A stretch of 63,186 nt of DNA from an uncultured Oscillospiraceae bacterium (GCA_964483415.1 CAZAAR010000002.1:1-63186); one strand, 5' to 3'; positions 15,334 through 50,298 are shown, counted from the first letter of the stretch. Program-made: numbers and translations. The notes: generated by a model from the sequence alone, not told the origin.

Positions 15334-15492
15334 AGTTTTACCTCCTAATTGTAAGTACGCGGATTTCAACAGTTAAATTTTACCCGATTTCTCCCTGTTT
15401 TGCAATACTTTTGCGTACGAAAATAGGGGCGGGGAGGAGGGGGCGCCTGATTTTTTCTTTAAAAGCGGGGAAAAGGCCCCGGTTTTGCTTCC

Positions 15493-16557
15493 TCAGAGCC
15501 GGATCAGGCTCTTTTCGCTCTTCGTGATGACGTCGCAGCCGTCCTCGGTGATCTGCACGATGTCCTCGATCCGGACGCCGAAGCGCCCCTCGAGGTAGAC
15601 CCCCGGCTCCACGCTCATCACAAGCCCGGCGGCCGCGATTTCCTTGCAGGTCGGGGAGAAGCGCGGGTCCTCGTGGATCTCAAGGCCCAGCGAGTGCCCC
15701 AGCCCGTGGCCGAATCTGCCCTCGTAGCCCGCGCCGTAGATGATCTTGCGGGCGACGGCGTCGATCTCGTCGCAGGGGAGACCGGGGCGCACCGCGGCCT
15801 CGGCCGCGGTCTGCGCCTCGAGGACGAGGTTGTAGACGGCCTCCTGCTCGTCGGTGATGCCGCCCACGGCGACGGTCCTCGTCATGTCGGAGCAGTAGCC
15901 GTTGACGGCCGCGCCGAAGTCCATCGTGACGAAGTCGCCGTCTTTAATGATATTCGCCCCGGGCACGGCGTGCGGCATCGAACCGTTCGCGCCGGCGGCG
16001 AGGATGGTCTCAAAGGCGAGCCCGGTCGCGCCGTTTCGCAGCATGTAGAAATCGAGCTCAAGCTGCAGATCCTTCTCGGAGAGGCCGGGCTTGATCAGAT
16101 CCAGCATGTGGAGGAAGGTCTTATCGGTGACCGCCTGCGCGGCGCGGATCTCCCGCATCTCGTCGGGCGTCTTGACGCGGCGCTGGTTTAAAATGACGCA
16201 GTTGAGACGCGGGTCGTCCTTCATCTCGACATTCAGCACTTTGCGCAGGCTGAAGAGCTTCTCGACGGTCATATAGCCGGATTCGACGCCGACGGTTTTG
16301 ACATGGTGCTCCTCAAAATAATCATTGAGCTGCTCGGTCAGGTCGCCGGTCAAGACGACGCGCGCGTCGGTGATCGTGCGCGTGCCGGCCTCGATGTAGC
16401 GGGAATCCAGAAAGATCGTCGCGTCGTCCCTTGTGACGACGAGCACGCCCGCGCTGGAGTTGAATCCGGTATAATATCTGCGGTTGACGGCCGAGTTAAT
16501 AAACGCGGCGTCCAGATCCTCCGGGAGCTCCCCGGCAAGGCGCTTGATTCTGTCCAT
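15493..16557 (-). CDS. pepP: Xaa-Pro aminopeptidase / M24 family peptidase
   Basis: 354 aa. Creatinase-like N-domain followed by metal ligands in DMTRT, GHGLGHSLGLEIHE and VEPGVY. Confidence 0.85.
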   Translation of the reverse strand: MDRIKRLAGELPEDLDAAFINSAVNRRYYTGFNSSAGVLVVTRDDATIFLDSRYIEAGTRTITDARVVLTGDLTEQLNDYFEEHHVKTVGVESGYMTVEKLFSLRKVLNVEMKDDPRLNCVILNQRRVKTPDEMREIRAAQAVTDKTFLHMLDLIKPGLSEKDLQLELDFYMLRNGATGLAFETILAAGANGSMPHAVPGANIIKDGDFVTMDFGAAVNGYCSDMTRTVAVGGITDEQEAVYNLVLEAQTAAEAAVRPGLPCDEIDAVARKIIYGAGYEGRFGHGLGHSLGLEIHEDPRFSPTCKEIAAAGLVMSVEPGVYLEGRFGVRIEDIVQITEDGCDVITKSEKSLIRL

Positions 16558-19872: not shown

Positions 19873-19922
19873 GCTGACGCCTCCAAAAACAGGTCTCGGC
19901 AAAAGATTGCCGGTCTTCTTGC

Positions 19923-19947
19923 AAAAAAACCGCGCCGCCGGGCGCGG
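19923..19947 (-). terminator. terminator-like hairpin inside the leuS leader (possible attenuator)
   Basis: Minus strand CCGCGCC-CGGC-GGCGCGG followed by T7, about 50 nt upstream of the leuS ATG. Confidence 0.55.
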
Positions 19948-20125
19948 AAAAACGGACCCGCCCGGCAAAACGCCGGCCGGCGGAACAAAACACGGCTTCC
20001 GGTTCCGAGTTTCAGCGGAAACAGAAGCCCGTCCCCTTATCCGGAACGACCTTTGGCCGCCCAAAAAATATTCCTTGAGGATCGCGCCGCCCGTCTTTTC
20101 ACGGCCGGCGGGCCCCGCCTCATTT

Positions 20126-20506
20126 TTACTTCCCGGCGGGCTCCTCCGGCCCGGCGTGCGGGAAATCGACCTCCTCGACCTTCGCGTCGCTCCAGAGGCG
20201 CTCGAGCGAGTAGAACTGCCGCGTCTCCTCATAGAAGATGTGGACGATCACGTCCGCGTAGTCCATCAGGATCCACTTCGCGGAGGAGTAGCCCTCGACC
20301 CTGCGCGGGGCGACGCCGTCCTCATGGCCGAGGCGGAAGTCGATCTCGTCGGAGAGCGCCTGCACGAGGCTCGTGTTGTTCGCGGAGGCCAGCACAAAAT
20401 AGTCGCCCAGCGAGCTGATCTCCTTTATTTTGAGCACGCGGATGTCCGTGGCCTTTTTGCTGTCGAGGATGGTCGCGATCTTTTTCGCGAGGTCATAAGA
20501 TTCCAT
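20126..20506 (-). CDS. rsfS: ribosome silencing factor RsfS (iojap)
   Basis: 126 aa. [31 protein letters not shown]...[14 protein letters not shown]. Confidence 0.9.
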
Positions 20507-20509
20507 AGT

Positions 20510-21145
20510 TTACTCCCTTTCTTCATCCGGAGAGGCGGCTTCGGCGTTTTTATATTCTTCCAACAAATCCTGTGATTCTTTCGTGACCGGGAGGCCCTTT
20601 TCGCGCAGGTCGCCGACGATCCACCGGATCGAGTAGGCGAGGGCCCGTTCGGGCTCCCGCTCGGCGAGCTTCCGAAGCCAGCCGCTCGCCGGGTATTCCC
20701 GGTCGTCGCTCGTGAGATCGGCCATGTAGATCGTCTTTTCGAGCGGGGACATGCCGCCCCGGCCGGAGGTGTGGTAGCGCACCGCGCTCAAAATGTCCGC
20801 GTCGGTCACGCCGAGCTCGTCCCGTATGTAGACGAAGCCGGCCGCGGAGTGCCAGAGGGCGGGGGAGGCCGCCGCGTCGCTGTCCAAAATTATACCACCG
20901 GCCTTGGCGGTTTGCAACTGCTCGGCGGACGTGCTGCATTTGCAGACGTCGTGCACAAGCCCCGCGAAGCCCGCCTTGCCGGGGTCCGCGCCGAATTTCG
21001 GCGCGAGCAGCAGGGCCCGCTCGGCGACAAGCAGCGAGTGCCGCAGGCGCTTCTCCGAGAGCCGCTCCCGGAGCAGATCCATAACCCGCTCCGTGTCCAA
21101 TCCGCAATATTCGGCCGCGTTTATACGCTTTGTCAAATTTTCCAC
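20510..21145 (-). CDS. yqeK: HD-domain bis(5'-nucleosyl)-tetraphosphatase YqeK
   Basis: 211 aa. RLRHSLLVAE...GLVHDVCK (HD motif). Lies in the conserved nadD-yqeK-rsfS neighbourhood. Confidence 0.85.
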   Translation of the reverse strand: MENLTKRINAAEYCGLDTERVMDLLRERLSEKRLRHSLLVAERALLLAPKFGADPGKAGFAGLVHDVCKCSTSAEQLQTAKAGGIILDSDAAASPALWHSAAGFVYIRDELGVTDADILSAVRYHTSGRGGMSPLEKTIYMADLTSDDREYPASGWLRKLAEREPERALAYSIRWIVGDLREKGLPVTKESQDLLEEYKNAEAASPDEERE

Positions 21146-29168: not shown

Positions 29169-29450
29169 TTAAAAGTAGAGGAAGCCTCCCTCCGCGCCGA
29201 ACAGGATCTCCGGGTCGCTCCGGCGGCGGGGGCCCGGGGCGCGCCCGTCTTTGCCGTAAGTGAGCGTCGCGCCGGGACTGAATTTTTCGTCGAGGAAGAG
29301 CCCCGGGTCGGTCGAGATCAGGCTCGTGACGGTGAAACGCCCGTTCTCCCGGTATCCCTCGAGCGTGCCGCCCTCGAATTCAAGGAACTCCCGCTCGTGC
29401 TCCCGCGTGGGAAAGATGCGGTCGAGCGGTTCAACGGAATAAAGGATCAT
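29169..29450 (-). CDS. ylzJ: YlzJ-like small protein (sporulation-associated neighbour of tepA)
   Basis: 93 aa starting [14 protein letters not shown]. Its start overlaps the tepA stop by 4 nt. Confidence 0.6.
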
Positions 29451-30427
29451 GGGTTGTACCCCCCCGCGCCGGAAGCTCCGGCCGGTTTCTTTTTATGCGG
29501 CCCTCCGGATTTTTTTCCTTCGGACTTCTTGCCCTTTTGTGAGGGGTTTCCTTTCGGGAAAGAGTCCCCTTTCTGCGGAGATCTTTTCTTCGATGGCGCG
29601 TTTTCTTTCCGCGGGGCGTTCCCTTTCGCGGGGGAAGTCTCCTCCCCGGAGGAGGTCTCTTTTTCGGAGGCGTTTTCGTCCGAAGCGGAATTTGGGTCCG
29701 GGCCCCTCGCCTCGATCTGTTCGTAGAGGGAATCGATCGCGTCGGAGAGGCCTCCGAGCCGGTCGATCAGCCCCTCGGCGACGGCCTGTTCGCCGTCGAG
29801 CACGGTGCCGACGTCGGTGATCAGCTCGCCAGTCGTGAACATCAGCTCCCGGAAGCGCTCGGTCGTGATGCGGGAGTTGGAGGTCACAAAATTCGTGATG
29901 CGCTCCTGCATTTTTTCAAAATAGGAGAGCGTCTGCGGCACGCCCAGCACGAGGCCGTTCATCCTTACAGGGTGGATGGTCATCGTGGCGGAGGGCGCGA
30001 TATAGGAGACCTTCGCCGCGCAGGCCAGCGGCACGCCGATCGAGTGCCCGCCGCCCAAAACCAGCGAGACGGTTGGCTTCTTCATGCCGGAGATCAGTTC
30101 TGCGAGGGCGAGCCCCGCCTCCACGTCGCCGCCGACGGTGTTGAGGATGATTAACAGGCCCTTGATGTCGGGGTCCTGCTCGATGGCGACGAGCTGGGGG
30201 ATGACGTGTTCGTATTTGGTGGATTTGTTTTGCGGCGGAAGGATATAATGTCCCTCGACCTGCCCCACCACGGTGAGACAGTGGATGGGATAGCGGCCTT
30301 TCGTCTGGGTGACGGAGCCGGTCTTGATGATCTGTTCGGTCTGTTCTCCCGCTTCTTCGTTCTCGTTTTCGGAAGAGGAGCCCTCCTCCTCATCCGCCGC
30401 GTTCCGGAAATCTTCTTTTTTCAGCAT
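29447..30427 (-). CDS. tepA: ClpP-family TepA-like protein with a K/G/N/P-rich C-terminal tail
   Basis: 326 aa. VVGQVEGH...[43 protein letters not shown]...GGGHSIGV is a ClpP/TepA fold. The last ~80 aa are low complexity ([34 protein letters not shown]). Confidence 0.8.
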
Positions 30428-33123: not shown

Positions 33124-34245
33124 TCAGAGTTTTCCGACCGTGTCGGAGAGTTCCTCCATATGGACGTAGGCCTTGATCCCCTGCGGGCAATGAGAGGCGC
33201 AGGCCCCGCAGGAGACGCAGGCGGAAGCGCGCCGCCCCTCCGGGAATTTCAAATAGGCATCTTTGGCCTTCCAGGTGACTTTTGTTTCAAGGAAGCGGTT
33301 CATCAGCGTCAGCATGCCGGGGATATCGATGCCGGCGGGGCAGGGCAGGCAGTAGCCGCAGCCCGTGCAGGGGATGCGCTCCATCCGCATCAGGACCTCC
33401 GCCGCCCGGGCGAGCGCCTCCGCCCGGGCCCCGTCGAGCGGTTCCCCGGCGTCGAACACGGCCAGGTTTTCCTCCAGCTGCGCGAGGCTGGACACGCCGC
33501 TCAGGATCGTAAAAATGCCGGGCTTGCCGAAAAACCAGCGGTAGGCAAGCTCGGCGGGCGCGCTTCCGGGACAGGCCTCCGCAAAAATCTTCCGCACGGC
33601 GGCGGGCGGGTTCGCGAGGTAGCCGCCCCGCGCCGGCTCCATCACGATGATCGGGAGCTTGTGCGCCACGAGCCAGTCGTAGAGGTATTTTGCGTCCTGC
33701 TCCTTCCAGTCGAGGTAGTTCATCTCGATCTGCGCGAAATCCCAGTCGTACTCCTCCGTCATCGTCTTCCAGAGCGCCTTGTCGCCGTGAAAGGAAAAAC
33801 CGAGCCTGCGGATCTGGCCTTGCTCTTTCTTTTCGCGCAGGATGCGGTAGGTGTCGGAGCGCACCATGTCCGGGTAATCCTCATTGTCGATCGAGTGGGC
33901 GAGGTAGTTGTCAAAATAATCCACCCGGCACTTTTGGAGCTGCTTGTCGAAGATGCGGCGCACGTCCGCCCCGTCCTTGCAGAGCCAGACCGGCATCTTG
34001 TCCGCGAGGAAGAAGCGCTCGCGCGGGTAATTCGCGAGCAGCTCCCCCATGACGCGTTCGGATTCGCCGCCGTGGTAGCAATAGGCCGTGTCATAATAGT
34101 TGACGCCCCGCTCCATCGCGAGCGCGACCATCCTTTCGGTGTGCGAAACGTCGATGGAGCCGTCCTCCCGCTTCGGCAGGCGCATGGCCCCCATGCCGAG
34201 CAGCGAGGCCTTTTTTTCATAGAGAGCGGTGTCCGTATATTTCAT
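33124..34245 (-). CDS. aldo/keto reductase with C-terminal 2x[4Fe-4S] ferredoxin domain
   Basis: 373 aa. GMGAMRLP...YYDTAYCYHGGESE is the AKR N-terminus. CTGCGYCLPCP and CVSCGACASHCP lie at the C-terminus. Confidence 0.85.
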   Translation of the reverse strand: MKYTDTALYEKKASLLGMGAMRLPKREDGSIDVSHTERMVALAMERGVNYYDTAYCYHGGESERVMGELLANYPRERFFLADKMPVWLCKDGADVRRIFDKQLQKCRVDYFDNYLAHSIDNEDYPDMVRSDTYRILREKKEQGQIRRLGFSFHGDKALWKTMTEEYDWDFAQIEMNYLDWKEQDAKYLYDWLVAHKLPIIVMEPARGGYLANPPAAVRKIFAEACPGSAPAELAYRWFFGKPGIFTILSGVSSLAQLEENLAVFDAGEPLDGARAEALARAAEVLMRMERIPCTGCGYCLPCPAGIDIPGMLTLMNRFLETKVTWKAKDAYLKFPEGRRASACVSCGACASHCPQGIKAYVHMEELSDTVGKL

Positions 34246-34764: not shown

Positions 34765-34793
34765 TTGACGGATGGCGCGCTTTGCGTTAAAAT
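34765..34793 (+). promoter_or_regulatory. sigma-A-type promoter for rpe (and probably the downstream Rnf-like genes)
   Basis: TTGACG (34765-34770), 17 nt spacer, TAAAAT (34788-34793), about 45 nt upstream of the rpe ATG. Confidence 0.55.
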
Positions 34794-34839: not shown

Positions 34840-35505
34840 ATGGGAATCCGGATCTCGCCCTCGCTGCTCTCGGCCGATTTTGCGAATCTCGGCGCGGAGG
34901 CAAGGGCGATGGAACTCGCCGGGGCGGACATGCTCCACCTCGACGTGATGGACGGGCATTTCGTCCCCAACATCAGTTACGGCCCGGTGGTCCTGCGCTC
35001 CCTGCGCAAGGCGAGCCCGATGTTTTTCGATACGCACCTGATGATCTCGGAGCCGCTGCGCTATATCGGGGATTATGTCGGGGCCGGGGCCGGGCTCATC
35101 ACATTCCATCTCGAGTCCGGCGACGAGCCCATGGCCGTGATCGAAAAGATCCGCTCCTTCGGCGTCTCCCCGGCGATCTCTTTGAGGCCCAAGACCCCGG
35201 CGGAGGCGGTCTTTCCGTATCTCCCCTTTATTGACATGGTCCTCGTGATGACGGTGGAGCCGGGCTTCGGCGGCCAGAGCTTCATGGAGGACATGGCGCC
35301 CAAGATCGAAGCGATCCGGCGGGAGGCCGCCCGCGTCGGGCGCCCGCTCGACATTCAGGTGGACGGCGGCATCGACGAGCGGACCGCGCCGGTCGCGGTC
35401 AGGGCCGGGGCGAATATTTTGGTGGCCGGCTCCTCGCTCTTTCATCAGGCGGATTACGCCGCGGCGGTGCGAAACCTGCGCGCGGCCGCGGAGGCCGCCC
35501 TGTAA
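34840..35505 (+). CDS. rpe: ribulose-phosphate 3-epimerase
   Basis: 221 aa. PSLLSADFANLG, HLDVMDGHFVPN, MTVEPGFGGQ, VDGG. Confidence 0.95.
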   Translation: MGIRISPSLLSADFANLGAEARAMELAGADMLHLDVMDGHFVPNISYGPVVLRSLRKASPMFFDTHLMISEPLRYIGDYVGAGAGLITFHLESGDEPMAVIEKIRSFGVSPAISLRPKTPAEAVFPYLPFIDMVLVMTVEPGFGGQSFMEDMAPKIEAIRREAARVGRPLDIQVDGGIDERTAPVAVRAGANILVAGSSLFHQADYAAAVRNLRAAAEAAL

Positions 35506-35597: not shown

Positions 35598-36653
35598 ATG
35601 TCGTATTTCATTCCGGGCATCGTCCTTGAACAGCGCAAGGAGCCGATGCTCTCCCGAGACATGGCGGTCATGAAGCCGGACGCCCCGCGCACCTTCTCCA
35701 ACCCCTTCGCGGAGATCCTGCCGCGCGAGCTTCGGCCCGAGGAGATCGCCGAGATCGCGCGCCTTGCCGACATCATCGACGAGTCGGACGGGCGCTCTCT
35801 CTATGAAAAGCTGATCGAAGCCGACAGGCGCGGCGTGGAGGCGGTGATCGCGGACGCCATCGACGACGAGCCGTTTATCTCAAGCCAGCTCCACATCGCC
35901 CTGCACGAGCCGGAGAAGATCGCGCTCGCGCTCGAGCTCTGCGCGAAGGCCGTGCACGCCGACCTGTCGAAGACCCGCGTGGCGGTCTACCGCCATGTGC
36001 TCGATATCACAATCCGCATCCCGAAGAAACTCGCGGGCGTCGAGGTGATGCACTTCGGCGGGCGGTATCCGGCCGAGATGCGCGCCTACCACAAATTTCA
36101 AAAAGAGAAAAAGACCTTCACCGCGGGCACCGGGGCGCTTTTGCATCTGGTGCGGGCGGCCGAGCGCGGCGTCGCGCAGACCACCTGTTTTGTCACGGTC
36201 GCGGGGGACGCCGTCGCGAACCCCTGCAACCTCGAGGCGGCGGTCGGCACGCCGGTCTCCGAAATTTTACGGTTTTGCGGCCTCGCCGCGGACCCGGAGG
36301 CGGTGATCCTCGGCGGCTCCATGACCGGGCGCTCGGTCACCGACCCCGAGGAGGAAAAAGTCGGGGTCATGACGCGGGGCATTCTCGCCTTTCGCGAAAG
36401 CCATAAAAGCCTCGGCTACATCTGCATCGGCTGCGGGCGCTGCGACCACGCCTGCCCCGAGGGGCTCTCCGCGTGCCAGCTGCGCCGCTTCGCCGAATTC
36501 GGTCGCAAGGACCTCCTGGAGCTTTACGACGTGGACCGCTGCATCGGCTGCGGGGCCTGCTCCTATGTCTGCCCCTCCAAACTGGACATCGGCTCCGCGA
36601 TCTTCGCCGCGAAGCGCAGCCTCGCCGCCGAGAAAGGGGGCGCCGCCGAATGA
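35598..36653 (+). CDS. RnfC-like subunit (short; NADH/FMN-site motifs degenerate, 2x[4Fe-4S] motifs retained)
   Basis: 351 aa. ATG 5 nt after GGAGG. Carries ADAIDDEPFISSQ (compare the canonical INGAECEPYL block), CIGCGRCDHACP and CIGCGACSYVCP. Confidence 0.7.
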   Translation: MSYFIPGIVLEQRKEPMLSRDMAVMKPDAPRTFSNPFAEILPRELRPEEIAEIARLADIIDESDGRSLYEKLIEADRRGVEAVIADAIDDEPFISSQLHIALHEPEKIALALELCAKAVHADLSKTRVAVYRHVLDITIRIPKKLAGVEVMHFGGRYPAEMRAYHKFQKEKKTFTAGTGALLHLVRAAERGVAQTTCFVTVAGDAVANPCNLEAAVGTPVSEILRFCGLAADPEAVILGGSMTGRSVTDPEEEKVGVMTRGILAFRESHKSLGYICIGCGRCDHACPEGLSACQLRRFAEFGRKDLLELYDVDRCIGCGACSYVCPSKLDIGSAIFAAKRSLAAEKGGAAE

Positions 36654-37729
36654 ACGAACACGGCCTGATCCTTCAAAACGCGCCGCACGTCCGCGCGAGT
36701 GAGTCCCTGTTCACCGTCATGGCGGATATGCTCGTCGCGCTGACGCCGCTTTACTTAATGGCCTGGTTTTATTACGGCCCGCGGGCGCTGCTGCTCGGGC
36801 TGATCGGGGCCGCGACCGCGTGGACGCTCGATCTGCTCGGCGTGCTGGCCGGCGGCCGGCGGCCGGATCTGCGGGATCTCTCCGCGGCGGTAACCGGGCT
36901 TTTGATCCCGCTCTTGATGCCCGCGTCCGTCCCGTATTACATCGTCGCCGCCGCCTGCGCGGTGGCGATCCTCGCCGTCAAATTCCCGTTCGGCGGCACG
37001 GGCAACAATCTGTTCAACCCCGCGGCGGTCGGGTTCGCGTTCGCCGCGATCTGCTGGCCGGAGCAGGTGTTCCGCTATCCGGCTCCGATGCAGCGCCTCG
37101 CGGTCGTGGGCGACGCGGTCGCGAAGACCGTCGTCAGCCCCGCGCACAGCCTGATGCGCGGCGCGATCCCGAGCCTTGATCTGTTCGACATGATCCTCGG
37201 CAACGCCTCCGGGCCGATGGGCGCGACGAATATTCTTGTGATCCTCGCCTGCGGCCTCTACCTGCTGGTCCGCAGGACGATCGGCTGGCGCGCCCCGGCG
37301 AGCTTTCTGCTGGTCTCGGGCCTGATGGCGACGGCGTGTCCGCGCTCCCCGTTCGGCGTGTTCGATTCCGTCGGGTGGGAGCTGTGCTCCGGGATGCTGT
37401 TGTTCGGCGCCGTGTTCATGATCACCGAGCCGGTCACCTCGCCCAAGCGCGACTTCGCGAAACTCCTCTACGGGGCCGCCGCCGGCGTGATGGCGATGCT
37501 GTTCCGCTATTTCGGAGGCTTTGAGGACGGCTTTGTATTTGCCCTGATCCTGATGAACGTCTCCGCGCCGCTCTTCGACCGCGTCTGCGAGCATCTGCTC
37601 CATCAGATCCGTCACGGCGCGCTGATACCGAAAAATGCGCCTTCGCCCCCCGGGGCGGGGCGTCCGCCCAAAGAGAAGAAGCCGAAGCCCGGCCTTAAAA
37701 AGAAGACGGAAACGGGGGTGGGCGCATGA
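36650..37729 (+). CDS. RnfD/NqrB-family membrane subunit, lacking the flavinylation motif
   Basis: 359 aa from the ATG overlapping the upstream stop (ATGA). DLSAAVTGLLIPLLMP, KFPFGGTGNNLFNPAAVG and FMITEPVTSP are family signatures. SPAHSL sits where SGATPL is expected. Confidence 0.8.
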   Translation: MNEHGLILQNAPHVRASESLFTVMADMLVALTPLYLMAWFYYGPRALLLGLIGAATAWTLDLLGVLAGGRRPDLRDLSAAVTGLLIPLLMPASVPYYIVAAACAVAILAVKFPFGGTGNNLFNPAAVGFAFAAICWPEQVFRYPAPMQRLAVVGDAVAKTVVSPAHSLMRGAIPSLDLFDMILGNASGPMGATNILVILACGLYLLVRRTIGWRAPASFLLVSGLMATACPRSPFGVFDSVGWELCSGMLLFGAVFMITEPVTSPKRDFAKLLYGAAAGVMAMLFRYFGGFEDGFVFALILMNVSAPLFDRVCEHLLHQIRHGALIPKNAPSPPGAGRPPKEKKPKPGLKKKTETGVGA

Positions 37730-38379
37730 AAAAGATGGACCCCGCGGCCGCCTCCCTTTTAAGCGAGAGCTTCCGCAAGATTCTGTTTTCCAACCCGGTC
37801 CTGGTCGGCGGGATGGTGCTGGGCGAGATCGTCATCGGCGCCACCTCGCTGCAAAACGCCGTGGCCCTCTCGGTCACGTTCGCGATCGTCACGATCCCGG
37901 TGCTGCTGCTCGCCCCGCTCGTCGCCCATTTTGTGCCCAAGACGTGGCGCATCCTCTGCTACGCCCTCGTCTCCATGTCGATGCTCTTTACGGCGCAGGC
38001 GGCGGTCGCGCCGATCTCCCCGACGATCTTCGACTCCCTGGGCATCTACCTGCCGCTGCTCGCGCTCAACACGGTCGTCGTCGCCTATTCCCGGCTGATT
38101 TCCGAGGAGAAGAGCGCCGTCTTCAATCTGCTCGACGGCGTCTGTTTCAGCATCGGTTTTCTGATCGTGGCGGTGCTGATCGGCGGGACCCGGGAGTTGT
38201 TCGGCAGCGGAACGCTCTGGGGCCATGTGATTTTGCAGCGCAAGGCCTCCGCTTTGAAGCTGCCGTTCGCCGGCTTCCTGCTCGCCGGCTTTTTGGCCGC
38301 GGGGATCGAGGGTCTGCGCATTTTGTTCCACGCGAAACCCTATGAACATTTCTCCGGCGGGAAGGAGGACCAGAAATGA
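37726..38379 (+). CDS. RnfE/NqrD-like membrane subunit (both conserved Cys replaced)
   Basis: 217 aa. NPVLVGGMVLGEIVIGATSLQNA, LGIYLPLLALNTVVV and LLDGVCFSIGF...GTRELFGSGTLWG align to RsxE blocks. Overlaps the upstream gene by 4 nt. Confidence 0.75.
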   Translation: MKKMDPAAASLLSESFRKILFSNPVLVGGMVLGEIVIGATSLQNAVALSVTFAIVTIPVLLLAPLVAHFVPKTWRILCYALVSMSMLFTAQAAVAPISPTIFDSLGIYLPLLALNTVVVAYSRLISEEKSAVFNLLDGVCFSIGFLIVAVLIGGTRELFGSGTLWGHVILQRKASALKLPFAGFLLAGFLAAGIEGLRILFHAKPYEHFSGGKEDQK

Positions 38380-38969
38380 CGTACCTGCTCGGTTTTATCG
38401 GCGCGGCGCTGACCGCCCTGTTTCTTGAAAACATCGTCTTCGCGCGCGCCCTCGGCACAAGCTGGCTCCTCTACATGCTCAAGCACCCCAAGGAGCTCGT
38501 GCGCTACTCCGCGCTGCTCACGATCATCACGGTCGTCTCGTCGCTCGCGGTCTATCCGCTGCGCGATTTTATCACCAAGACCGGATACGCGTATGTGCTG
38601 ATGCCAATACTGTTTACTGCCTGCATGTCCGCGCTGTACGCGCTCATCTATCTCGTCACAAAAAGATACCTGCCCGGCGTCTTTGAAAATATCCAGAAGC
38701 GCCTCGCCTCGGCGACGTTCAACTGCGCGATCCTCGGCAGCCTGCTGATCCCGTATAACGAGGGCATGGACCTCGCCCACACGCTCGGCTACTCCGTCGG
38801 CATGTCCGCGGGCTTTGTGTTCGCCGTCGTGCTGATCGGGGCGGGCATGGAGCGCATCGCGCTCTGCCGCGTGCCGAGGGCGTTCCGGGGGCTGCCGGTC
38901 CTGCTGATCTATCTCGGGCTGCTCTCCCTCGCATTTTACGGGCTGATCGGGCATCAGCTCCCGACCTGA
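38376..38969 (+). CDS. RnfA/NqrE-like membrane subunit (one of two conserved Cys retained)
   Basis: 197 aa. ENIVFARALGTSW, ATFNCAILG and VPRAFRGLPVLLIYLGLLSLAFYGLIG align to RsxA blocks. Overlaps the upstream gene by 4 nt. Confidence 0.75.
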   Translation: MTYLLGFIGAALTALFLENIVFARALGTSWLLYMLKHPKELVRYSALLTIITVVSSLAVYPLRDFITKTGYAYVLMPILFTACMSALYALIYLVTKRYLPGVFENIQKRLASATFNCAILGSLLIPYNEGMDLAHTLGYSVGMSAGFVFAVVLIGAGMERIALCRVPRAFRGLPVLLIYLGLLSLAFYGLIGHQLPT

Positions 38970-38985
38970 TCCGAAAGGAAACAAG

Positions 38986-40359
38986 ATGGCCAGATTTTTT
39001 AAAATCAAGCGCAGCGGGAACCGCGACCGCCAAAGCAAAAAAGGCTTTTATCAGATTAGGCGCTCCGCGGACCGCATCATCGACCCGCGGCGCAAGCTCT
39101 ATCGGAAGATCGCGCTCATTGCGGCCGGGGTCCTCGTGATGTTTGCCGTGGGGTGGTTTGTCTACGAGCCGCTCGTTCAGGTGCTGCTTGGTTCCGGGGC
39201 GCCGGAGCCGGAATCGGCGTCTTCGGAGCCGGTCTTCGAGGCCTCGTCGGAGCCGGAGCCCGCGCCGGAGGAGGAGCCGGATCTCTTCGCGCAGCCGGTC
39301 CTCGCCGCCCTGGTCCCGGGGAAGGCCTTCGCGGACGACGCCCTTTATACCGCCTACCTTGCCGGGCTGGAGCCCTCCGTCAACGCCGTCGTACTCGACC
39401 TCAAGGACGGCGGCGGCGCGGTGACCTACCGCTCGCCGCAGTCGAGCGTCGCGGAATACGGCACCGAGACGGAAACCGCCGCGGACCTCGCCTTGCGGAT
39501 CGAGGCGGCGCGCGCCGCCGGATACGGCGTGATCGCGCGGATTTACTGCTTTGAAGACCACAAGGCGCCCTCCGGCTGCTACGAGGGCTCGGTCAAATAC
39601 GGCAGCGCGGACGGCGTGCTCTGGCTCGACGACAGCGCCGAGTACGGCGGCCGCCCGTGGCTCAACCCCTGCTCCGACACCGCGAGAAAATATGTGCTCG
39701 ACATCGTCTGCGACGCCGCGAATTTCGGCGCGGACGCCGTCGTGCTCGACGGCCTGCGCTTCCCGCCGGACCGGGGCGTCCAATACGCATGGTTCGCCAA
39801 TGAGGGCTTCGACCGCCTCGAAGTCCTGCGCAGCTTTACGGAGCTCGCCATGGCGGAGGCGGGGAAGCAGTCCGTCCCGGTGCTGGCCGCGTACGACGCC
39901 TCCCGCGTCGTCCTCGGCGCCACCTCCGTCTATGGGGGCAGCCCGGCCGCGTTTCCGGCCTCCGGCTACGCGCCGGCGATGGATTTCGGGGCCCTTGCCG
40001 GGGCGGCGGGGCTCTCCGGGGCGCTTGCCTACGAGAGCCTGCCGCAGGATTTCCGCGCCGCCACAAACGCGCTGGTCGGCGCGCTGGGTTACGGCGGGGG
40101 CAGCCTGCTGCTCCCGTTCGTGCAGGCGGAGGGTCTTTCGGATGAGGACCTCGCCGCCGTGCTCGCCGCGCTGCGGGAAAAAGGCGCGCCCAGCGCCGTC
40201 CTCGTCGGGAAATATAAGGTCCCGGCGGCGGAAACGGCCTCCTCCGAGCCGTCGCACCGGCCGGAACCCTCGCCGGGGGCCTCCTCCGGGGGCTCCTCCT
40301 CGGGAAAGGAGAATTCCTCCGGGGAGAGCGGCAGCCGCGTCATCACCGTAAAGCCCTGA
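38986..40359 (+). CDS. membrane-anchored putative glycoside-hydrolase-like TIM-barrel protein (DUF4015/GHL-type, tentative)
   Basis: 457 aa. Basic cytoplasmic N-terminus, one TM helix (IALIAAGVLVMFAVGWFVY), and an acidic S/E/P linker. The body includes NAVVLDLKDGGG, IARIYCFEDH, RPWLNPCSDTARKYVLDI and GADAVVLDGLRFP. Starts 16 nt after the RnfA-like gene. Confidence 0.55.
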   Translation: MARFFKIKRSGNRDRQSKKGFYQIRRSADRIIDPRRKLYRKIALIAAGVLVMFAVGWFVYEPLVQVLLGSGAPEPESASSEPVFEASSEPEPAPEEEPDLFAQPVLAALVPGKAFADDALYTAYLAGLEPSVNAVVLDLKDGGGAVTYRSPQSSVAEYGTETETAADLALRIEAARAAGYGVIARIYCFEDHKAPSGCYEGSVKYGSADGVLWLDDSAEYGGRPWLNPCSDTARKYVLDIVCDAANFGADAVVLDGLRFPPDRGVQYAWFANEGFDRLEVLRSFTELAMAEAGKQSVPVLAAYDASRVVLGATSVYGGSPAAFPASGYAPAMDFGALAGAAGLSGALAYESLPQDFRAATNALVGALGYGGGSLLLPFVQAEGLSDEDLAAVLAALREKGAPSAVLVGKYKVPAAETASSEPSHRPEPSPGASSGGSSSGKENSSGESGSRVITVKP

Positions 40360-40516
40360 CCGCCCGGGGGCCATGCCCTTCCGGGGGTTCCCTCGCGGGG
40401 GTCCTTTATAAAGGGATCCGGTTTCGCCGTCCTGTTTCGCAAAATAAAAAGCGCCGCGCCGTCTGAAGGATCAGACGGCGCGGCGCTTTTTGAGCGTATG
40501 GGAATCGGCGGGGATT

Positions 40517-41950
40517 TCAGTTGCCCGCCGCGGGTTTGCTGGTCGCCGAGGAGCCGGAGGCCGCGGGCTTGCTGCTGGTCGCAGCGGGCTTGCTGGTTGT
40601 CGTGGAGCCGGACGTCGCGGGCTTGCTGGTCGCCGCGGAACTGTTTGCGGACGAGCCGCTCTCCGTTCCGGAGACGGGCTCGGTCTTCGGCACGACCGGC
40701 GTGATCGGCGGATGGACGGCGTCCGGATTGATCACAAACTCGGCCTCCGTCTTCATCGCGGTCTTGGGGTTGGTCACGAGCTTCGCCATCACGACGAAGC
40801 GGTAGTTCTCGCGGGTCGCGAGCCCCCAGCCCACCGTGCAGGTGGAGAAGGTCAGGATCTTGTCGCTCTTGGTCACCGGGACGTTATAGGTGTAGAGGGA
40901 GCGGTTCTTTGCCGTGGTGAGCAGGAAATCAAACGCGGAGTCGTCCGGGGCGGGGTCGATGTACCAGAACGCCTTGCCGTCGATGGCTTTGTCGTTGTAA
41001 AAGACCGCGAAGACCTCCCAGACCATATCCTGATCGGCGGTCGAGAAGAAGATATAAGGCGTCTTCCTGGCGAAAGCCTCGTCCGTGAAGTAGAAGAGCT
41101 GGGAGAAGCGCGGGCCGGCCGCGTCGTCGGCCTTATACTCGAGGTTGGTGGAGCCGAGGTCGCTGTGGCCGAAGATGACGGTGTTTTTGGACAGGCCCGC
41201 CGCGCCGCCTTCAAACGTGTTGTATTTGCTCGAGTAGTAGGCGCCGTCGATCCAGTAAGTGTTGTAGACGTATTTGCCCAAGTCGTTGCGGTAGTTGTAG
41301 GAGTAGGAATTCTTGTCTTGGCAGACGACGGCATTGATGTCCGAAAGGCCCGGGACGTTGAGCCAGCCGACCACGTCGCCGTTCGCGTTGAAGGCCGCGG
41401 CGATCTGCTCAAGCCGGCTGACGACCTCGACGGGCTGCGGCTCCGCCTCGGAATTTTCCTCCGAGCTCCCGCTTTCGATGATCACGGCGCCGGACTCGGA
41501 TTCCTCCCCGGGCGTGCGGCTGCCGGAGGAGCAGGAGGCGATGAGCAGGACAAGCAGCAGCACAACGGCCGCCGCCACGATCCCGAGGCGCAGCACCAGT
41601 TTCCCGGTAGGCATCGACCGGACGGTCTCGGCAAGCGCCCTCAGCTTCCCGGAGAAGCCGCCCGCGGCGTTTACCGGCTCGCCGTCGTCCCAATCAGCCG
41701 ATTCGGTCTCGGGTTCCGCTTCGGGTGTCTCTTCGGGGAAAGCGTCCGCGCCGCCCGGTTCATCCCCCGGAGAGGGCGTCTCCGCGGCGGGCTCGTAGAT
41801 CCGGGCGTCGCCGCCTACATATGTACCGAACGGTTTTTCTTCTTCCTCGTCCTCCGTCTCCGCGCCGGTCCCGGGCCTTTTCCGAAGGAGATCCTTGGCC
41901 CCGGCCTCCGCGTCGTTTTTGAGATCTTTTAGTTTATCGAGAAAACTCAT
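40517..41950 (-). CDS. class-B-type sortase with long acidic cytoplasmic N-terminus and S/T/P/K-rich C-terminal tail
   Basis: 477 aa from ATG 41950 (AAGGA RBS). TM LGIVAAAVVLLLVLLIA. Sortase blocks VVGWLNVPGLSDINAVVCQDKN, NTVIFGHSD (His), ILTFSTCT (Cys), and YRFVVMAKL (Arg). Confidence 0.75.
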   Translation of the reverse strand: MSFLDKLKDLKNDAEAGAKDLLRKRPGTGAETEDEEEEKPFGTYVGGDARIYEPAAETPSPGDEPGGADAFPEETPEAEPETESADWDDGEPVNAAGGFSGKLRALAETVRSMPTGKLVLRLGIVAAAVVLLLVLLIASCSSGSRTPGEESESGAVIIESGSSEENSEAEPQPVEVVSRLEQIAAAFNANGDVVGWLNVPGLSDINAVVCQDKNSYSYNYRNDLGKYVYNTYWIDGAYYSSKYNTFEGGAAGLSKNTVIFGHSDLGSTNLEYKADDAAGPRFSQLFYFTDEAFARKTPYIFFSTADQDMVWEVFAVFYNDKAIDGKAFWYIDPAPDDSAFDFLLTTAKNRSLYTYNVPVTKSDKILTFSTCTVGWGLATRENYRFVVMAKLVTNPKTAMKTEAEFVINPDAVHPPITPVVPKTEPVSGTESGSSANSSAATSKPATSGSTTTSKPAATSSKPAASGSSATSKPAAGN

Positions 41951-42392
41951 AATCGTGTCCATCCTTATGACGTGTAATAATAATAAAGTATAACACCCTT
42001 CTTTTTTAATTACAAGCGGGCGTCCGGTTCCGGAAAAGATTTCCCGCCGCGGCAAAAAAGCGGGCGGCCGTATCCTAATTACAGTGCAAAAAAGCCGGTA
42101 AATTCCTGCTTGGGGAGCCGGCCGCGGCATGTTTTTTTTGCGCCCGGACCCCGGCGCGCACGGCGGGAACGTCCCGGCGAAGGGCCGGCCGCCGCGCCCT
42201 TCGCATTTTACGAAAGCAGCCGGGAAGATATACGCCTGAGCCGTTTCAAATTCGCGGGCCGGGCCCGCGCGCCCCGGCGGTTTGGAAAAACGCCGCGCCG
42301 GCCTCTCTCCCGCGCGCCCTTTCGCCGCTCTTTTTCGGCGCGAGACAAAGCCCCCGCCAAAAAAGCGGGGGCCGTCCCCGGGTCGCCGTATG

Positions 42393-46191: not shown

Positions 46192-49100
46192 ATGGAAATA
46201 ATGATAAAAACGAAAAAATGGCTGTTCCTGAGGTGGACGCTCGCGCTGCTCATGGCGTTCGGCGCGCTTTTGCCGGTCAGCGCCGCGTACGCGGAGGGAG
46301 AGCCCGCCGATGTGACCGGCCTGCTCACCGGGATTACGCTGGCCGTCACCCAAGACGACGAGGAGATCGGGGAGGGGGGCTCTCTCTCGAGCACGGACCC
46401 GATTACGGTCGAGATCTCCTTTCGCGTGCCGGTGGAGGGCGACCAAGAAGAGTGGGAGGATGAGGACCCTTTCGTACATAAGGGCGATTTCGCCCTGTTC
46501 GATCTGGGCGACTCCTTTTACCTGAAATCCAGCGGCTCCATCGAGCTGAAAGATAAGTCTAATCATCTTGTCGGACACGTCACTTTTTCCACGGACGACG
46601 AGACCGGCGTGGTGACTGCCCGGGTGGATTTCGACGGAGAAGACGATATTTTCAGCAACAATTCCCATGGCGTGACCGCAAAATTCAAGGCGGAGTTTGA
46701 ATATAACGCCGACGGCGACGCGGGGAGCGCGGGGGACCACCATGTCACGATCCTTGAGAAAACCTATGTCGTCACGGTCCCGCCCGTCGAGATCCTTTAC
46801 AATGTGGAAAAGACGGGCTCCATCAATTTTGCCGACGAATGTATCGACTGGACCGTTACGCTCTCCGCGACGCAGGGCGGCGAGGCTTACAGCTTAGAGG
46901 GCTACCGGTTTTTCGACGACCTCACGGCCGTGGGCGACTACGTCGCGGACTCATTCGCCGTCGACATCGTCGACAACGCGGAGCCCGAATATGACGTAGA
47001 AAATAAAGAGCTTACTTACGACTTCCCCGAGGGAGCGATGAGCCCCGCGGAGATCACGTTCAGCACCGCGCTCACCGAGGCGCAGCTCCTTGCCACCTCC
47101 GCGTGGACAATCACAAACAAAGCGGAGCTTTGGGACACCGAAGACGGCACAGAGCCTTTGGCCGGCGGCGAAAAGGGAATCACATTTACCCCGAAATGGA
47201 TCGAGAAGGCCGGCGCCGCGGGCGGGGAATATACGGCAGGCGGCTCCTATAGCCCGACCAACCGCACGATCACCTGGACGATCACCGTCAACCACCTCGG
47301 GGCGACGCTCCCGAACGCGGTCGTCACCGACGAGCTTCCGGACGGCCTGACGTTTGGGTCGGCGACCATGCGGGCGTGGGACGCCGAGAACGAGGAATGG
47401 GGCGCCGCGGTTCCGGTCACGCCGGACGGCGACGATTACCCGCTCGGCGACATCGACACCATGGTCCGGCTCACCATCGTGACAAAAGTGGACAACGACG
47501 AATATACGGCCGACATCAGAAACTTTTCAAACACCGCCGCGCTCACGTGGACCGGCCTCACCGGCGCCGCCCCCAGCGAAGGCGACACCGTCGGCATCGG
47601 CTATAACGCGATCATGAAATCGGGCGAAGTCAGCGCCGCCGCCCCCCGCACGGTCACCTGGACCGTCACGGTGGACGCGAGGGGGCAGACGATCCCGGAC
47701 GCCAAGGTCTACGACCTGCTCGTCTACGGGACCGGTATCGACTTCGACGAGGTGACGGGGATCCCCGCCGGGATCGACACCGACGATCTCACCCCCGGCT
47801 ACAATCAAAAATATGCGTATGGGAGCTTCTCGGGGACCGGGCTCACCTGCGTGGTCCACACGATCACGCGGACCGTGGACGGCGAAACGGTGCCGGTCGC
47901 GGATCTTTTGGAGATCACGGGTTTCCCGGTGACTTCAAAGACCTTCACCTTCGACACCGTGATCGTCAACCCGAATATTTTCGCCGGCAACAGGACCTCC
48001 ACGCTTTATAACACCGCCACGCTCTTCAGCGGCACCACCTGGCTGAACGACGATTCGGCCAACGTCAGCTATACCAACAAGCTGCTGGCCAAGCGGATGC
48101 TCACCCGCGCCGCCGCCGCCAATCCCGCGGCGAACGCGAACACGTTTACGAAAGAACCGACGGAGGGCTTCGATTATGTGGACAAATCGGCCGTCTTCCG
48201 TCTTGATATCAACTACGACGGCATCGACCTCCCGAATATGACGAACGCCTCGGGCCAACTGCTCGGGGAGGTGACCGTCACCGACACCCTGCCGGCCGGC
48301 TGGGAATTCGCGTCTTTTTCCGGGGACGATGACGCTCCCGTATATTATCTGATTTTCTTGGGCGCCAAGAATCCCAACGGGACCGTCACGGCGACGGGTA
48401 CCCCGCTGGATCCGGCCACGATCACGGGCCTGACCGCGTATCCGCCCGCCCCCGCGACGGAGACGGACGGGGAGACGGTCACGTTCACCTTTACCGCGCT
48501 GGCCCAGCCCTATGTGATCCTCGTCAAGGCAAGGCTCACCGACGAGACCGCCGCCGCGTATTTCGGCGAGAACCAGACCAAAACGGACGCCAACACGGTG
48601 ACGCTGCACACCGCGAACTGGACCACCGGCGTGAGCGACGGACAGAGCGTCACGATCGACAGCGCCGTCTTGACTAAAGACTGGACGCAGCCGGAGTCCG
48701 GCGTGCTGCGCTGGACGGTGGACTACAAGCCCTATGACCTTCTCCAGCCTGGCAGAGAAATTAAAGATATCATCCCGGAGGGCATGGAACTGCGCAGAAC
48801 CTCCAGCGGCGCGCTGATCCTGACCGGCGGGTATATTACGGCGCAGGAGATGACCCTCGGTGCCAACGGCGGCTACACGCCGGGCGACGCGGTCACGCTG
48901 ACGCTGATCGAGGGCGAAACCGGAAACATCGGCTACGACCCCGGGACGCGCGCGCTGACCTTCAGGATCCCGGACAGCGCCACGGCCTACCAGTTGACCT
49001 ATCTGACCGACATCACGGGCGAGCCGAGCCCGATTCCCGTCTACAACAGCGTGTCGCTGCTCGGCGGCGGGGAGGAGCAGGAGTCGGCCAGAATCCCCTA

Positions 49101-50298
49101 CACCATCAAACAGGCGGACGGCGAGGCCAGCTTCGGCAGGAACGGTTGGATCCGCATCACCAAGACGGACGAAAACGGCGTGCTTCCCGGCGCAGAGTTC
49201 ACGCTTTTCACCGCGGACGGCGAGACCGTCTTCAAACAGGGCCGAACCAAAACCAACGGGATTCTTGAGTTCAAAGTGATCCCGGACGGCGAGTATATCC
49301 TTAAAGAGACCGACCCGCCGGAGGGCTACGGCCCCGACCGGGCGGTTCACACCCTCCGTGTCTCGACCGCCGAGGACGGCGCCGTGACCTCCTCCATCGA
49401 CGGCAAAACCGGCGAAGACGCCAACACCCTCGCGGTGGAAAACTTCCTTGAGGGCACGGTGGGCGACCTTGTCATCACAAAAACCGTGGCCGGAAACCGG
49501 GGCGACCAGCAGAAGCTGTTTGACTTCACGGTGACCTTCTTTGCGGACACGGCGAACGGGCGGATGGAGCTCGAGGGCGAATACTTCTATTACCGCGGCG
49601 ACGCGGATCTGCCGGAGGGCACGGTCCAAAGCGGCGGTACGATTTCACTCGCCCACGGCGAGCGCGTCACGATCGAGAATCTGCCCAGGGAGATCACCTA
49701 TACGGTGACCGAGGCGGACTACCGCGGCGAGGGCTACCGCACCGTCAGCGAGGGCGCGACCGGCGTCATCGTCGCGGATGAGGCGCAGACGGCCGCCTTC
49801 ACCAACACCAAAAACCGCGTGAAAGACGACGTCAAGAAACCCGTCGAGAAGGGCGCCCTGACGATCACCAAGACCGTGGACGGCGACCTTGGGGACAGGG
49901 ATCAGCTCTTCACGTTCGTCGTGAGCTTTGATACGGACGACACCTACCGCTATTCCGGCAGCAAGACCGGCTCCATAAAGGACGGCGGGACCGTTCTGCT
50001 CAAACACGGCGAATCCGTCGTGATCCGCGGGATTCCGGCCGGCACGGTCTATAAAGTCGTAGAAAAAGAGGCCGGACAGGGCGGCTACGGCACCAGCTTC
50101 ACGGGGGCCTCCGGCAAGATCACCGAGTCCGGCAGGACGGCGGCGTTTGTAAATGAAAAAGAGGGCATCCCGAATACCGGGGACGAGAGTCTCGACAACG
50201 CATGGACGGTAGGCCTCGCGGGTTCCGTTCTGATTCTTCTGGGATCGGTCGGCCTGATCCTCTCCTTTAAGAAAAAGAAGGGCAAGGATAACCGCTGA
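46192..50298 (+). CDS. sortase-anchored multi-domain adhesin (collagen-binding/Cna-A-like repeats, Cna-B/SpaA-type domain, two TKTV(A/D)G-type stalk domains)
   Basis: 1368 aa. Signal peptide WLFLRWTLALLMAFGALLPVSAAYA. Repeated ...TWT(I/V)TV(N/D)...lP.a.v.D.LP patterns. GWIRITKTDENGVLPGAEFTLF...YILKETDPPEGY is Cna-B-like. C-terminal IPNTG, TM helix, then KKKKGKDNR. Confidence 0.85.
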   Translation: MEIMIKTKKWLFLRWTLALLMAFGALLPVSAAYAEGEPADVTGLLTGITLAVTQDDEEIGEGGSLSSTDPITVEISFRVPVEGDQEEWEDEDPFVHKGDFALFDLGDSFYLKSSGSIELKDKSNHLVGHVTFSTDDETGVVTARVDFDGEDDIFSNNSHGVTAKFKAEFEYNADGDAGSAGDHHVTILEKTYVVTVPPVEILYNVEKTGSINFADECIDWTVTLSATQGGEAYSLEGYRFFDDLTAVGDYVADSFAVDIVDNAEPEYDVENKELTYDFPEGAMSPAEITFSTALTEAQLLATSAWTITNKAELWDTEDGTEPLAGGEKGITFTPKWIEKAGAAGGEYTAGGSYSPTNRTITWTITVNHLGATLPNAVVTDELPDGLTFGSATMRAWDAENEEWGAAVPVTPDGDDYPLGDIDTMVRLTIVTKVDNDEYTADIRNFSNTAALTWTGLTGAAPSEGDTVGIGYNAIMKSGEVSAAAPRTVTWTVTVDARGQTIPDAKVYDLLVYGTGIDFDEVTGIPAGIDTDDLTPGYNQKYAYGSFSGTGLTCVVHTITRTVDGETVPVADLLEITGFPVTSKTFTFDTVIVNPNIFAGNRTSTLYNTATLFSGTTWLNDDSANVSYTNKLLAKRMLTRAAAANPAANANTFTKEPTEGFDYVDKSAVFRLDINYDGIDLPNMTNASGQLLGEVTVTDTLPAGWEFASFSGDDDAPVYYLIFLGAKNPNGTVTATGTPLDPATITGLTAYPPAPATETDGETVTFTFTALAQPYVILVKARLTDETAAAYFGENQTKTDANTVTLHTANWTTGVSDGQSVTIDSAVLTKDWTQPESGVLRWTVDYKPYDLLQPGREIKDIIPEGMELRRTSSGALILTGGYITAQEMTLGANGGYTPGDAVTLTLIEGETGNIGYDPGTRALTFRIPDSATAYQLTYLTDITGEPSPIPVYNSVSLLGGGEEQESARIPYTIKQADGEASFGRNGWIRITKTDENGVLPGAEFTLFTADGETVFKQGRTKTNGILEFKVIPDGEYILKETDPPEGYGPDRAVHTLRVSTAEDGAVTSSIDGKTGEDANTLAVENFLEGTVGDLVITKTVAGNRGDQQKLFDFTVTFFADTANGRMELEGEYFYYRGDADLPEGTVQSGGTISLAHGERVTIENLPREITYTVTEADYRGEGYRTVSEGATGVIVADEAQTAAFTNTKNRVKDDVKKPVEKGALTITKTVDGDLGDRDQLFTFVVSFDTDDTYRYSGSKTGSIKDGGTVLLKHGESVVIRGIPAGTVYKVVEKEAGQGGYGTSFTGASGKITESGRTAAFVNEKEGIPNTGDESLDNAWTVGLAGSVLILLGSVGLILSFKKKKGKDNR

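Follow-up and report, generated by a model that had tools for sequence, protein, structure and literature searches.

What could remain of an Rnf complex once the sites for several of its cofactors are gone, and what could the remainder do? The question is raised by a DNA stretch of 63,186 nucleotides from an uncultured Oscillospiraceae bacterium (GCA_964483415.1 CAZAAR010000002.1:1-63186, hereafter the window). Its plus strand carries, at 35598-40359, five intact open reading frames (ORFs) encoding RnfC-, RnfD-, RnfE- and RnfA-like proteins (here C', D', E' and A') and a DUF4015 protein resembling glycoside hydrolases (GH). Comparison of motifs and gene content showed that the predicted variant complex cannot be a ferredoxin:NAD+ oxidoreductase or a redox-driven Na+/H+ pump, since RnfB, the A/E [2Fe-2S] cluster, RnfG, the flavinylation motif of RnfD and the NADH/FMN site of RnfC are all missing. 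In our tentative reading, to which we give somewhat less than an even chance, C' and D' are left as a redox relay or sensor which, together with a cluster-free E'/A' scaffold, is tied to the GH-like subunit.

The module belongs to a family of its own. A scan of species-representative genomes yielded 80 loci in two classes, canonical and variant; the variant set comprises 46 distinct loci, including three further loci reached through C' homologues and the window itself. Motifs were checked against solved Rnf/Nqr chains and multiple sequence alignments of the 46 variant and ~36 canonical loci. Canonical loci have an rnfG of ~650 nucleotides between D and E, possess rnfB, and lack rpe; at variant loci D' abuts E', rpe lies upstream, and 46 retain the C'D'E'A' order. 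Neighbor-joining trees recover the variants as a monophyletic clade, with bootstrap values of 72 (D), 97 (E) and 100 (A). Its subunits share 23-27% identity with canonical ones, which share 45-55% among themselves across phyla. A C' protein search returned hundreds of ~350-residue relatives from Oscillospiraceae/Ruminococcaceae genomes and metagenomes, and a library of 50%-identity clusters contains 350 A' relatives at E <= 1e-10; the family comprises at least ~140 clusters at that identity. Named sources of variant loci include Negativibacillus, Anaerotruncus, Angelakisella, Hydrogenoanaerobacterium, Fimivivens, Acutalibacteraceae and many metagenome-assembled genomes (MAGs). So far the variant is found only in Oscillospirales, where it is common in gut and rumen members.

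C' combines a NuoF-like/SLBB domain with a ferredoxin domain and lacks the N-terminal ~100 residues of RnfC (RnfC_N). Compared by fold, its structural model matches RnfC chains best (E 1e-17 to 1e-19), with NqrA and NuoF behind; the Fe-S domain of this model is of low confidence. In the window, IIDESDG stands in place of the RnfC motif G(L/M)GGAGFP, and DAIDDEP in place of NGxECEP. The same holds family-wide: the GxGGAGFP loop becomes DE-xDG in 46/46 variant loci and NGxECEP becomes DAxDDEP or DAx[EQD]x[QE]P, while these NADH/FMN-site motifs are conserved in 34-36 of 36 canonical loci. Both CxxCxxCxxxCP motifs are intact in the window, and the eight Fe-S cysteines of RnfC do not vary in any of the 46 variant and 36 canonical sequences, cluster binding being predicted from the motif. 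An earlier note on this DNA had described C' as short (351 residues), with the NADH/FMN glycine loop and the INGAECEP-type block replaced and both CxxCxxCxxxCP motifs present, and the solved chains and alignments bear this out. C' has also gained invariant motifs of its own, namely an N-terminal LEQxKEP, DExDG and DDEP. A second, Acutalibacteraceae-like subclade keeps a long RnfC_N-type N-terminus and shares the DExDG change. The idea that the acidic DDEP pocket docks the basic N-terminal tail of the GH-like protein was rejected, as the motif does not follow GH presence (L032 and L034 have DDEP and no GH-like gene). In two Anaerotruncus-like genomes (L018 9992-12538, L020 1412-3085), C' bears a C-terminal extension of 200-500 residues that is low-complexity, coiled-coil-like and rich in Q, A and E. 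It brings to mind the long helix at the C-terminus of A. vinelandii RnfC that an Rnf/Nqr review mentions; as low-complexity coiled coil, these extensions were dropped as candidates for informative fusions.

D' shows a similar mixture of lost and retained sites. In the alignment, T-P-L of the flavinylation motif falls on S163-P-A of D', which puts a serine at the position of the FMN-bearing threonine. The earlier note had called this threonine lost, and the canonical motif is indeed gone; its register was off by three, however, and the replacement is serine, not histidine. Among the variants this position holds Ser in 36, Gly in 7, Asn in 2 and Thr in 1, and the ApbE recognition positions upstream of it, Dxx[ST]GA (D-x-x-[ST]-[GSA]-A), are not conserved. 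On these alignments D' has no canonical flavinylation site, and the serine could in principle accept FMN. The riboflavin ligands have fared differently. N123 and D249 of A. woodii RnfD hydrogen-bond riboflavin, and mutation of either abolishes activity and growth (PMC11889175). The corresponding residues of the window are N123 and E260, and across the variants the first position is N in 44/46 and the second D or E in 45/46. D' further contains two variant-specific conserved cysteines, C135 and C201, and ends in a basic, Pro-rich tail.

In E' and A' most cluster ligands are gone and some other residues are kept. Both [2Fe-2S] cysteines of the window's E' are replaced (G33 and T116); in A' the first has become S29 and the second is kept as C117, in agreement with the earlier note on all counts. 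Variant loci retain none of the four ligand cysteines (14 loci), one (31 loci, with the window at one of four) or two (2 loci), while canonical loci read CCCC in 29/29. Likewise, 139 of the 142 best full-length A' relatives in the clustered library lack the first cluster cysteine. Two of the 142, P0310 and P0313, keep both cysteines, at E of about 1e-29 and with a variant-like score, and may represent intermediate forms that link canonical RnfA to the variant. The window's E' keeps the broken-helix asparagine and an R156-E157 motif, and its A' keeps N116. Family-wide, the broken-helix asparagines are mostly kept (41/45 for the equivalent of RnfA N112; N in 32 and S in 12 for the RnfE equivalent), as is the E' R-E motif. 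Mean identity within E'/A' is 32%, against 51-55% in their canonical counterparts, indicating much faster evolution.

So many lost ligands, together with the fast evolution of E' and A', might suggest a decaying rnf duplicate on its way to loss, and one locus that keeps only C' and a D' without riboflavin ligands would fit that picture. As an account of the family, however, decay is scarcely credible. Across 46 species-level loci the reading frames remain intact, both the order of the genes and their translational coupling persist, novel invariant motifs have arisen (the three of C' and D' C135/C201), and the ratio of nonsynonymous to synonymous substitution rates (dN/dS) is 0.07-0.28 for all five genes in six species pairs, close to that of rpe. 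For the family as a whole, decay into pseudogenes is excluded, and the earlier note's view that these are not pseudogenes is borne out by selection, monophyly and the number of clusters. The exceptional locus, in a MAG (L052 9036-11919), holds only a minus-strand MecA-family gene, a long-form C' and a D' in which R and V replace the riboflavin ligands, followed by unrelated genes; rpe, E', A' and the GH-like gene are all lacking. This locus probably represents the module in decay, and it was not used as a minimal C'D' core since its D' lacks both riboflavin ligands.

Beyond the changes within the four subunits, whole parts of Rnf are missing. The earlier note had found no RnfG between D' and E' and no RnfB after A'; tblastn with queries from three canonical loci likewise found neither in the 63-kb window nor within 10 kb of the 46 variant loci, while most canonical loci match. 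The window also contains no ApbE homologue. ApbE occurs within 10 kb of 8/37 canonical loci and 1/46 variant loci, the latter being L040, where an ApbE-family lipoprotein gene (14859-15866, minus strand) lies 1.8 kb downstream of a GH-less variant module. No NqrF or NqrC gene was found at the module, which on this count is not an NQR. The canonical path from NADH through FMN, Fe-S, [2Fe-2S] and FMN(G) to FMN(D) is impossible here, as had been claimed, with ligands or subunits missing in every member of the family.

A genuine Rnf pump could nevertheless be imagined whose RnfG and RnfB, and perhaps more, are supplied by a canonical rnf operon at another genomic site, and complete rnfCDGEAB operons do exist in other Oscillospiraceae genomes (L048, L057, L061, L062, L070). 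We regard this as very improbable. The [2Fe-2S] ligands and the NADH/FMN site belong to the variant's own subunits, the full set is missing in every member, and ligand mutations in A. woodii abolish activity (PMC11889175). The four proteins also score far below the NCBIfam trusted cutoffs: their best models are rnfC, rnfD, rnfE and rnfA, with bit scores against cutoffs of 118/246, 191/207, 63/213 and 76/229, and the Nqr models score far below cutoff. The nearest approach to borrowing is L042, an Acutalibacteraceae MAG with a second Rnf-type cluster 7 kb from the variant module (17910-20897, minus strand). This cluster is of a third kind, comprising the end of an RnfC-like Fe-S protein, an RnfD with canonical STATPL, a large RnfG-like protein (~300 residues when mature, ending in ISGATTSS) and a 299-residue polytopic membrane protein; neither RnfA nor RnfB was detected in it. 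Being non-canonical (C-D-large G-299-residue membrane protein), it was rejected as proof of a canonical Rnf in the same genome.

The losses are modular. Gone are the input half (RnfB, the A/E cluster, RnfG and the covalent FMN of D) and the NADH exit, and what remains is the segment from riboflavin in D to the two [4Fe-4S] clusters of C; in real Rnf, riboflavin(D) and the ferredoxin domain of C are adjacent steps of the wire. The description "cofactor-eroded" in the earlier note is therefore apt for the NADH site, the [2Fe-2S] cluster and the flavinylation motif, and overstated for the invariant Fe-S cysteines and the riboflavin ligands. It had also left the choice between a non-redox and a differently wired function; survival of the C' Fe-S cysteines and D' riboflavin ligands favors the latter. 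The pairwise distances of C' and D' also co-vary most strongly of all (r 0.91; partial r 0.81 when controlling for rpe, with no formal null).

We propose that the module encodes a neofunctionalised Rnf paralogue, in which C'D'E'A' would form a membrane complex, mostly with the anchored DUF4015 GH-like protein as its fifth subunit. [quoted passage not shown] E' and A' would serve as a cluster-free scaffold, which may still bind cations given that the broken-helix asparagines are kept. The state of this membrane unit would be coupled to the extracytoplasmic glycan-processing subunit, which a conserved transmembrane anchor holds in place, either by electrons passing outward through D' or by conformational change.

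The predicted fifth subunit consists of a basic cytoplasmic N-terminal tail, a transmembrane helix at residues ~34-68, an acidic Pro-rich linker, a DUF4015 TIM barrel at 106-407 and a low-complexity C-terminal tail. It matches Pfam PF13200 with 76.7 bits against a gathering score of 27, over profile positions 26-190 of 313, that is, the N-terminal half only, and carries VLDGLRFP where DUF4015 proteins typically have QFDYIRFP. In its AlphaFold model, an extended N-terminal helix is followed by a disordered acidic linker and then by a (beta/alpha)8 barrel predicted with confidence, its predicted local distance difference test score (pLDDT) being mostly >85. Among PDB structures, the barrel best matches the DUF4015 fragment of Cthe_0052 (4S1A), followed by PgaB (GH153), GH20 enzymes, TM1410, GH191 and PelA (GH166). 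These relatives act on cell-surface or exopolysaccharide glycans, and the substrate is probably a cell-wall or exopolysaccharide glycan. Two conserved acidic positions, D191 and D215, are candidates for a catalytic role in a putative hydrolase activity. A literature search on DUF4015 function returned nothing relevant, and no member with known activity.

A search with a hidden Markov model built from the GH-like gene placed a homologue directly after A' in 38 of the 45 variant loci whose sequence reaches that far, and in 0 canonical loci, which makes the membrane-anchored TIM-barrel protein that the earlier note had pointed out downstream a real and recurrent partner. Seven loci of one subclade have no GH-like gene and carry unrelated genes at that place. 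The barrel is probably extracytoplasmic, and the protein probably a fifth subunit. There is modest evidence that it is a physical partner of the complex, perhaps at the place of the RnfG stalk helix. Firstly, its anchor is as conserved as its barrel: mean top-residue frequency is 0.41-0.43 over the juxtamembrane tail, anchor helix and barrel (0.43 for the anchor region, 0.41 for the barrel), against 0.30 in the linker, with no formal null. Secondly, it co-varies with C'/D' to a degree similar to A' (mirror-tree partial r 0.57, against 0.55-0.56 for A', again with no formal null).

The retained Fe-S and riboflavin ligands would also suit a one-way electron exporter, in which a cytoplasmic donor reduces the C' clusters, these reduce one or more non-covalent D' flavins, and the electrons leave to an extracytoplasmic acceptor such as free flavin, a quinone, a metal or a protein encoded elsewhere. 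The GH-like gene would then be a mere syntenic neighbor, as its absence from seven loci might suggest, and the serine found at the FMN-Thr position in 36/46 variants could help to hold a flavin. The logic is that of two-subunit NQR/RNF-like systems: partial systems with the RnfD path only have been proposed to be unidirectional, and their RnfD-like subunit does not conserve the flavinylation site (PMC8238504, PMC10979944). Even so, this explanation is distinctly unlikely. It accounts neither for the retention of cluster-free E' and A' nor for the GH-like gene's place after A' in 84% of loci; moreover, the NADH/FMN entry site is destroyed with no alternative donor domain, and no FMN_bind, ApbE or other acceptor gene is linked.

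Alternatively, D'E'A' may be a non-redox transporter or scaffold that moves a solute, a cation or a lipid-linked glycan, with C' as a structural or regulatory cap and the GH-like protein processing the glycan on its way out or in. D' is a relative of Amt/urea transporters and E'/A' are an inverted-repeat pair suited to alternating access; they would have reverted to transport, and the Fe-S clusters of C' would be structural. NqrA offers a precedent, being a cofactor-free RnfC homologue kept as a structural subunit; the broken-helix asparagines and the E' R-E motif are what a transporter might keep, and GH-like proteins of the PgaB/PelA type serve polysaccharide export systems. Yet NqrA also shows how readily the cofactors are lost once unused, while the eight Fe-S cysteines and both riboflavin ligands are kept across this family. 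Furthermore, among the genes within 10 kb of the variant loci, none that is conserved encodes a glycosyltransferase, a synthase or another polysaccharide-related protein, and RnfD was dry and without an ion path in a study of the A. woodii complex (PMC11889175). We consider a transporter or scaffold of this kind unlikely.

A further possibility, which we hold to be quite improbable, is an Rnf-derived transducer of signal or force. The Fe-S/flavin state of C'D', or cation flux through E'A', would drive the inherited inward/outward switch, and the anchor helix would toggle an extracytoplasmic glycan hydrolase. FtsEX is an ATP-driven, transporter-derived complex that does not transport and is paired with an extracytoplasmic cell-wall hydrolase. 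Its likeness to the variant would lie solely in the logic of a membrane complex plus a hydrolase; there is no homology, and coupling in the variant is hypothetical. If true, such a transducer would tie remodelling of the cell wall or of exopolysaccharide to the redox or energy state of the cytoplasm, an Rnf chassis working by FtsEX-like logic.

Several observations weigh against our preferred reading of a C'-D' relay or sensor tied to a GH-like subunit. [quoted passage not shown] Fe-S clusters may serve structure alone, and N123/D249 lie within the motifs NPA and TDxxxP, which structure alone might conserve. As for the scaffold, fast evolution of E'/A' is compatible with a merely structural or dispensable role. 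On the side of the fifth subunit, the GH-like protein has no redox motif, the seven GH-less loci indicate that the Rnf-like core can function without an adjacent GH copy, and the mirror-tree and anchor-conservation evidence is weak, without a formal null.

The variant can be set against four kinds of known system. It is closest to Rnf itself (7ZC6, 8AHX, 9ERI), of which C'D'E'A' are clear homologues in the same C-D-(G)-E-A order, with the eight RnfC cysteines and the RnfD riboflavin ligands kept. It differs from Rnf in lacking RnfG, RnfB, the NADH/FMN site and the D flavinylation motif, in having 0-2 of the four [2Fe-2S] cysteines, in the added DUF4015 protein, in the loss of RnfC_N in the window's subclade, and in its low identity (23-27%). 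Na+-NQR resembles it in that NqrB, NqrD and NqrE are homologous to D', E' and A', and in NqrA, the RnfC homologue that lost its cofactors yet stayed. However, NQR keeps the [2Fe-2S] cluster, NqrC and both covalent FMNs and has gained NqrF, and C', unlike NqrA, keeps its Fe-S motifs. The two-subunit NQR/RNF-like systems (Meheust et al. 2021, PMC8238504; PMC10979944) are likewise partial derivatives with an RnfD-type path and no flavinylation site in the RnfD-like subunit. Found mainly in Actinobacteria and the candidate phyla radiation, they consist of an NqrB/RnfD fused to an NAD-binding PF00175 domain and a flavinylated NqrC/RnfG-like partner (PMC8238504; PMC10979944). The variant has no PF00175 domain, FMN_bind partner or ApbE linkage, and does have RnfC-, RnfE- and RnfA-like subunits. 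Finally, the GH-like protein shares the PF13200 match and predicted TIM barrel with DUF4015 and other GH-like barrels (4S1A; PgaB GH153, PelA GH166, TM1410); unlike these, it is anchored by a conserved N-terminal helix. The literature search returned no description of a CDEA + DUF4015 module, in keeping with the earlier note, which knew of no described system like it.

These findings bear on how Rnf-type complexes are understood and annotated. A 2025 review of Rnf/Nqr calls the cofactors of the four membrane subunits "strictly conserved" (PMC12174285), a claim that the variant clade contradicts. Public annotations name the variant proteins RnfC/D/E/A, "SLBB domain-containing protein" or "hypothetical protein", and counting the genes as an Rnf pump would wrongly credit gut Oscillospirales with ferredoxin-driven energy conservation. 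The family also amounts to a dissection of Rnf performed by nature, in which the RnfC-RnfD half has stayed and the RnfB-A/E-G half has gone, and could show what RnfD/RnfC and the A/E scaffold do alone. For DUF4015 proteins, it provides a first functional context.

The following features bear on how the five genes may be transcribed in the window.

34765..34793, plus strand: candidate sigma-70-like promoter, TTGACG-17-TAAAAT, upstream of rpe (consensus match only, 10/12 matches)
34840..35505, plus strand: rpe, ribulose-phosphate 3-epimerase, upstream neighbor of the module (TIGR01163, 249 bits against a cutoff of 213; also Pfam)
35598..36653, plus strand: C', RnfC-like, 351 residues (Pfam SLBB and 4Fe-4S dicluster)
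36650..37729, plus strand: D', RnfD-like polytopic membrane subunit, 359 residues (Pfam NQR2_RnfD_RnfE, PF03116, 2e-78)
37726..38379, plus strand: E', RnfE-like membrane subunit, 217 residues (Pfam Rnf-Nqr)
38376..38969, plus strand: A', RnfA-like membrane subunit, 197 residues (Pfam Rnf-Nqr)
38986..40359, plus strand: GH-like single-pass membrane protein (Pfam DUF4015, PF13200)
40447..40490: strong bidirectional intrinsic terminator after the GH-like gene, with a 20-bp GC-rich stem and A and T runs on either side

ATGA start/stop overlaps at 36650, 37726 and 38376 join C', D', E' and A', and 16 nucleotides separate A' from the GH-like gene; an ORF check returned the reading frames, overlaps and gap just as the earlier note gave them. 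GC content at third codon positions is 0.85-0.87 in each of the five genes. The candidate promoter is likely, by its consensus match, to be the start of the window transcript. In the 92 nucleotides between rpe and C' there is no promoter-like or terminator-like site, and the hairpin there is no better than in shuffled sequence (z -0.58), giving no sign of an attenuator or terminator. No riboswitch or other known RNA was found upstream of or within the operon. With a promoter-like site before rpe, no break between rpe and C', and a terminator after the GH-like gene, the predicted transcription unit of the window is rpe-C'D'E'A'-GH, in which rpe is probably co-transcribed.

The proposal that the operon starts at rpe is thus plausible for the window, but it does not generalize. 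Wherever the contig extends far enough, as it does in 45 variant loci, rpe is found upstream of C'; in more than 20 of the related loci, a MecA-family adaptor gene (PF05389, ~190 residues) stands on the opposite strand between the two (e.g. L016 9382-9945 and L023 9302-9862, minus strand). It is absent from this place in the window's own clade. Given this intervening gene, the rpe linkage is an ancient synteny and not a universal operon. Clustering of all ORFs within 10 kb of the variant loci revealed no conserved neighbor beyond rpe, the MecA-family gene and the GH-like gene. A shared sporulation-type promoter upstream of C' in the MecA-bearing loci was considered and dropped when inspection by eye found no consistent motif, and a literature search for a sporulation link returned nothing relevant.

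Other features of the window lie outside this unit. An FMN riboswitch (RF00050, 14058-14204, minus strand, 90 bits, above the gathering score) is found ~21 kb from the module; it presumably controls a minus-strand riboflavin transport or synthesis gene downstream and has no evident link to the Rnf-like operon. A TepA-like protease of the ClpP family with long low-complexity tails is encoded at 29447-30427 (minus strand); just upstream of it, the window's closest relatives (L085/L086 1-5200) carry a YlzJ-like gene, BacA and FtsK/SpoIIIE, a set typical of endospore formers. Convergent on the module terminator is the gene of a sortase-domain protein with a long Ser/Thr/Pro-rich tail (40517-42130, minus strand), and 6 kb downstream of the module is that of a 1368-residue SpaA/collagen-binding/DUF7601 surface protein (46192-50298, plus strand); the sortase-domain and SpaA-type proteins suggest a pilus or adhesin locus. 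Divergent from rpe is a gene for an aldo/keto reductase with a C-terminal 4Fe-4S dicluster domain (33124-34245, minus strand), which occupies the same place in the 87%-identical L085/L086.

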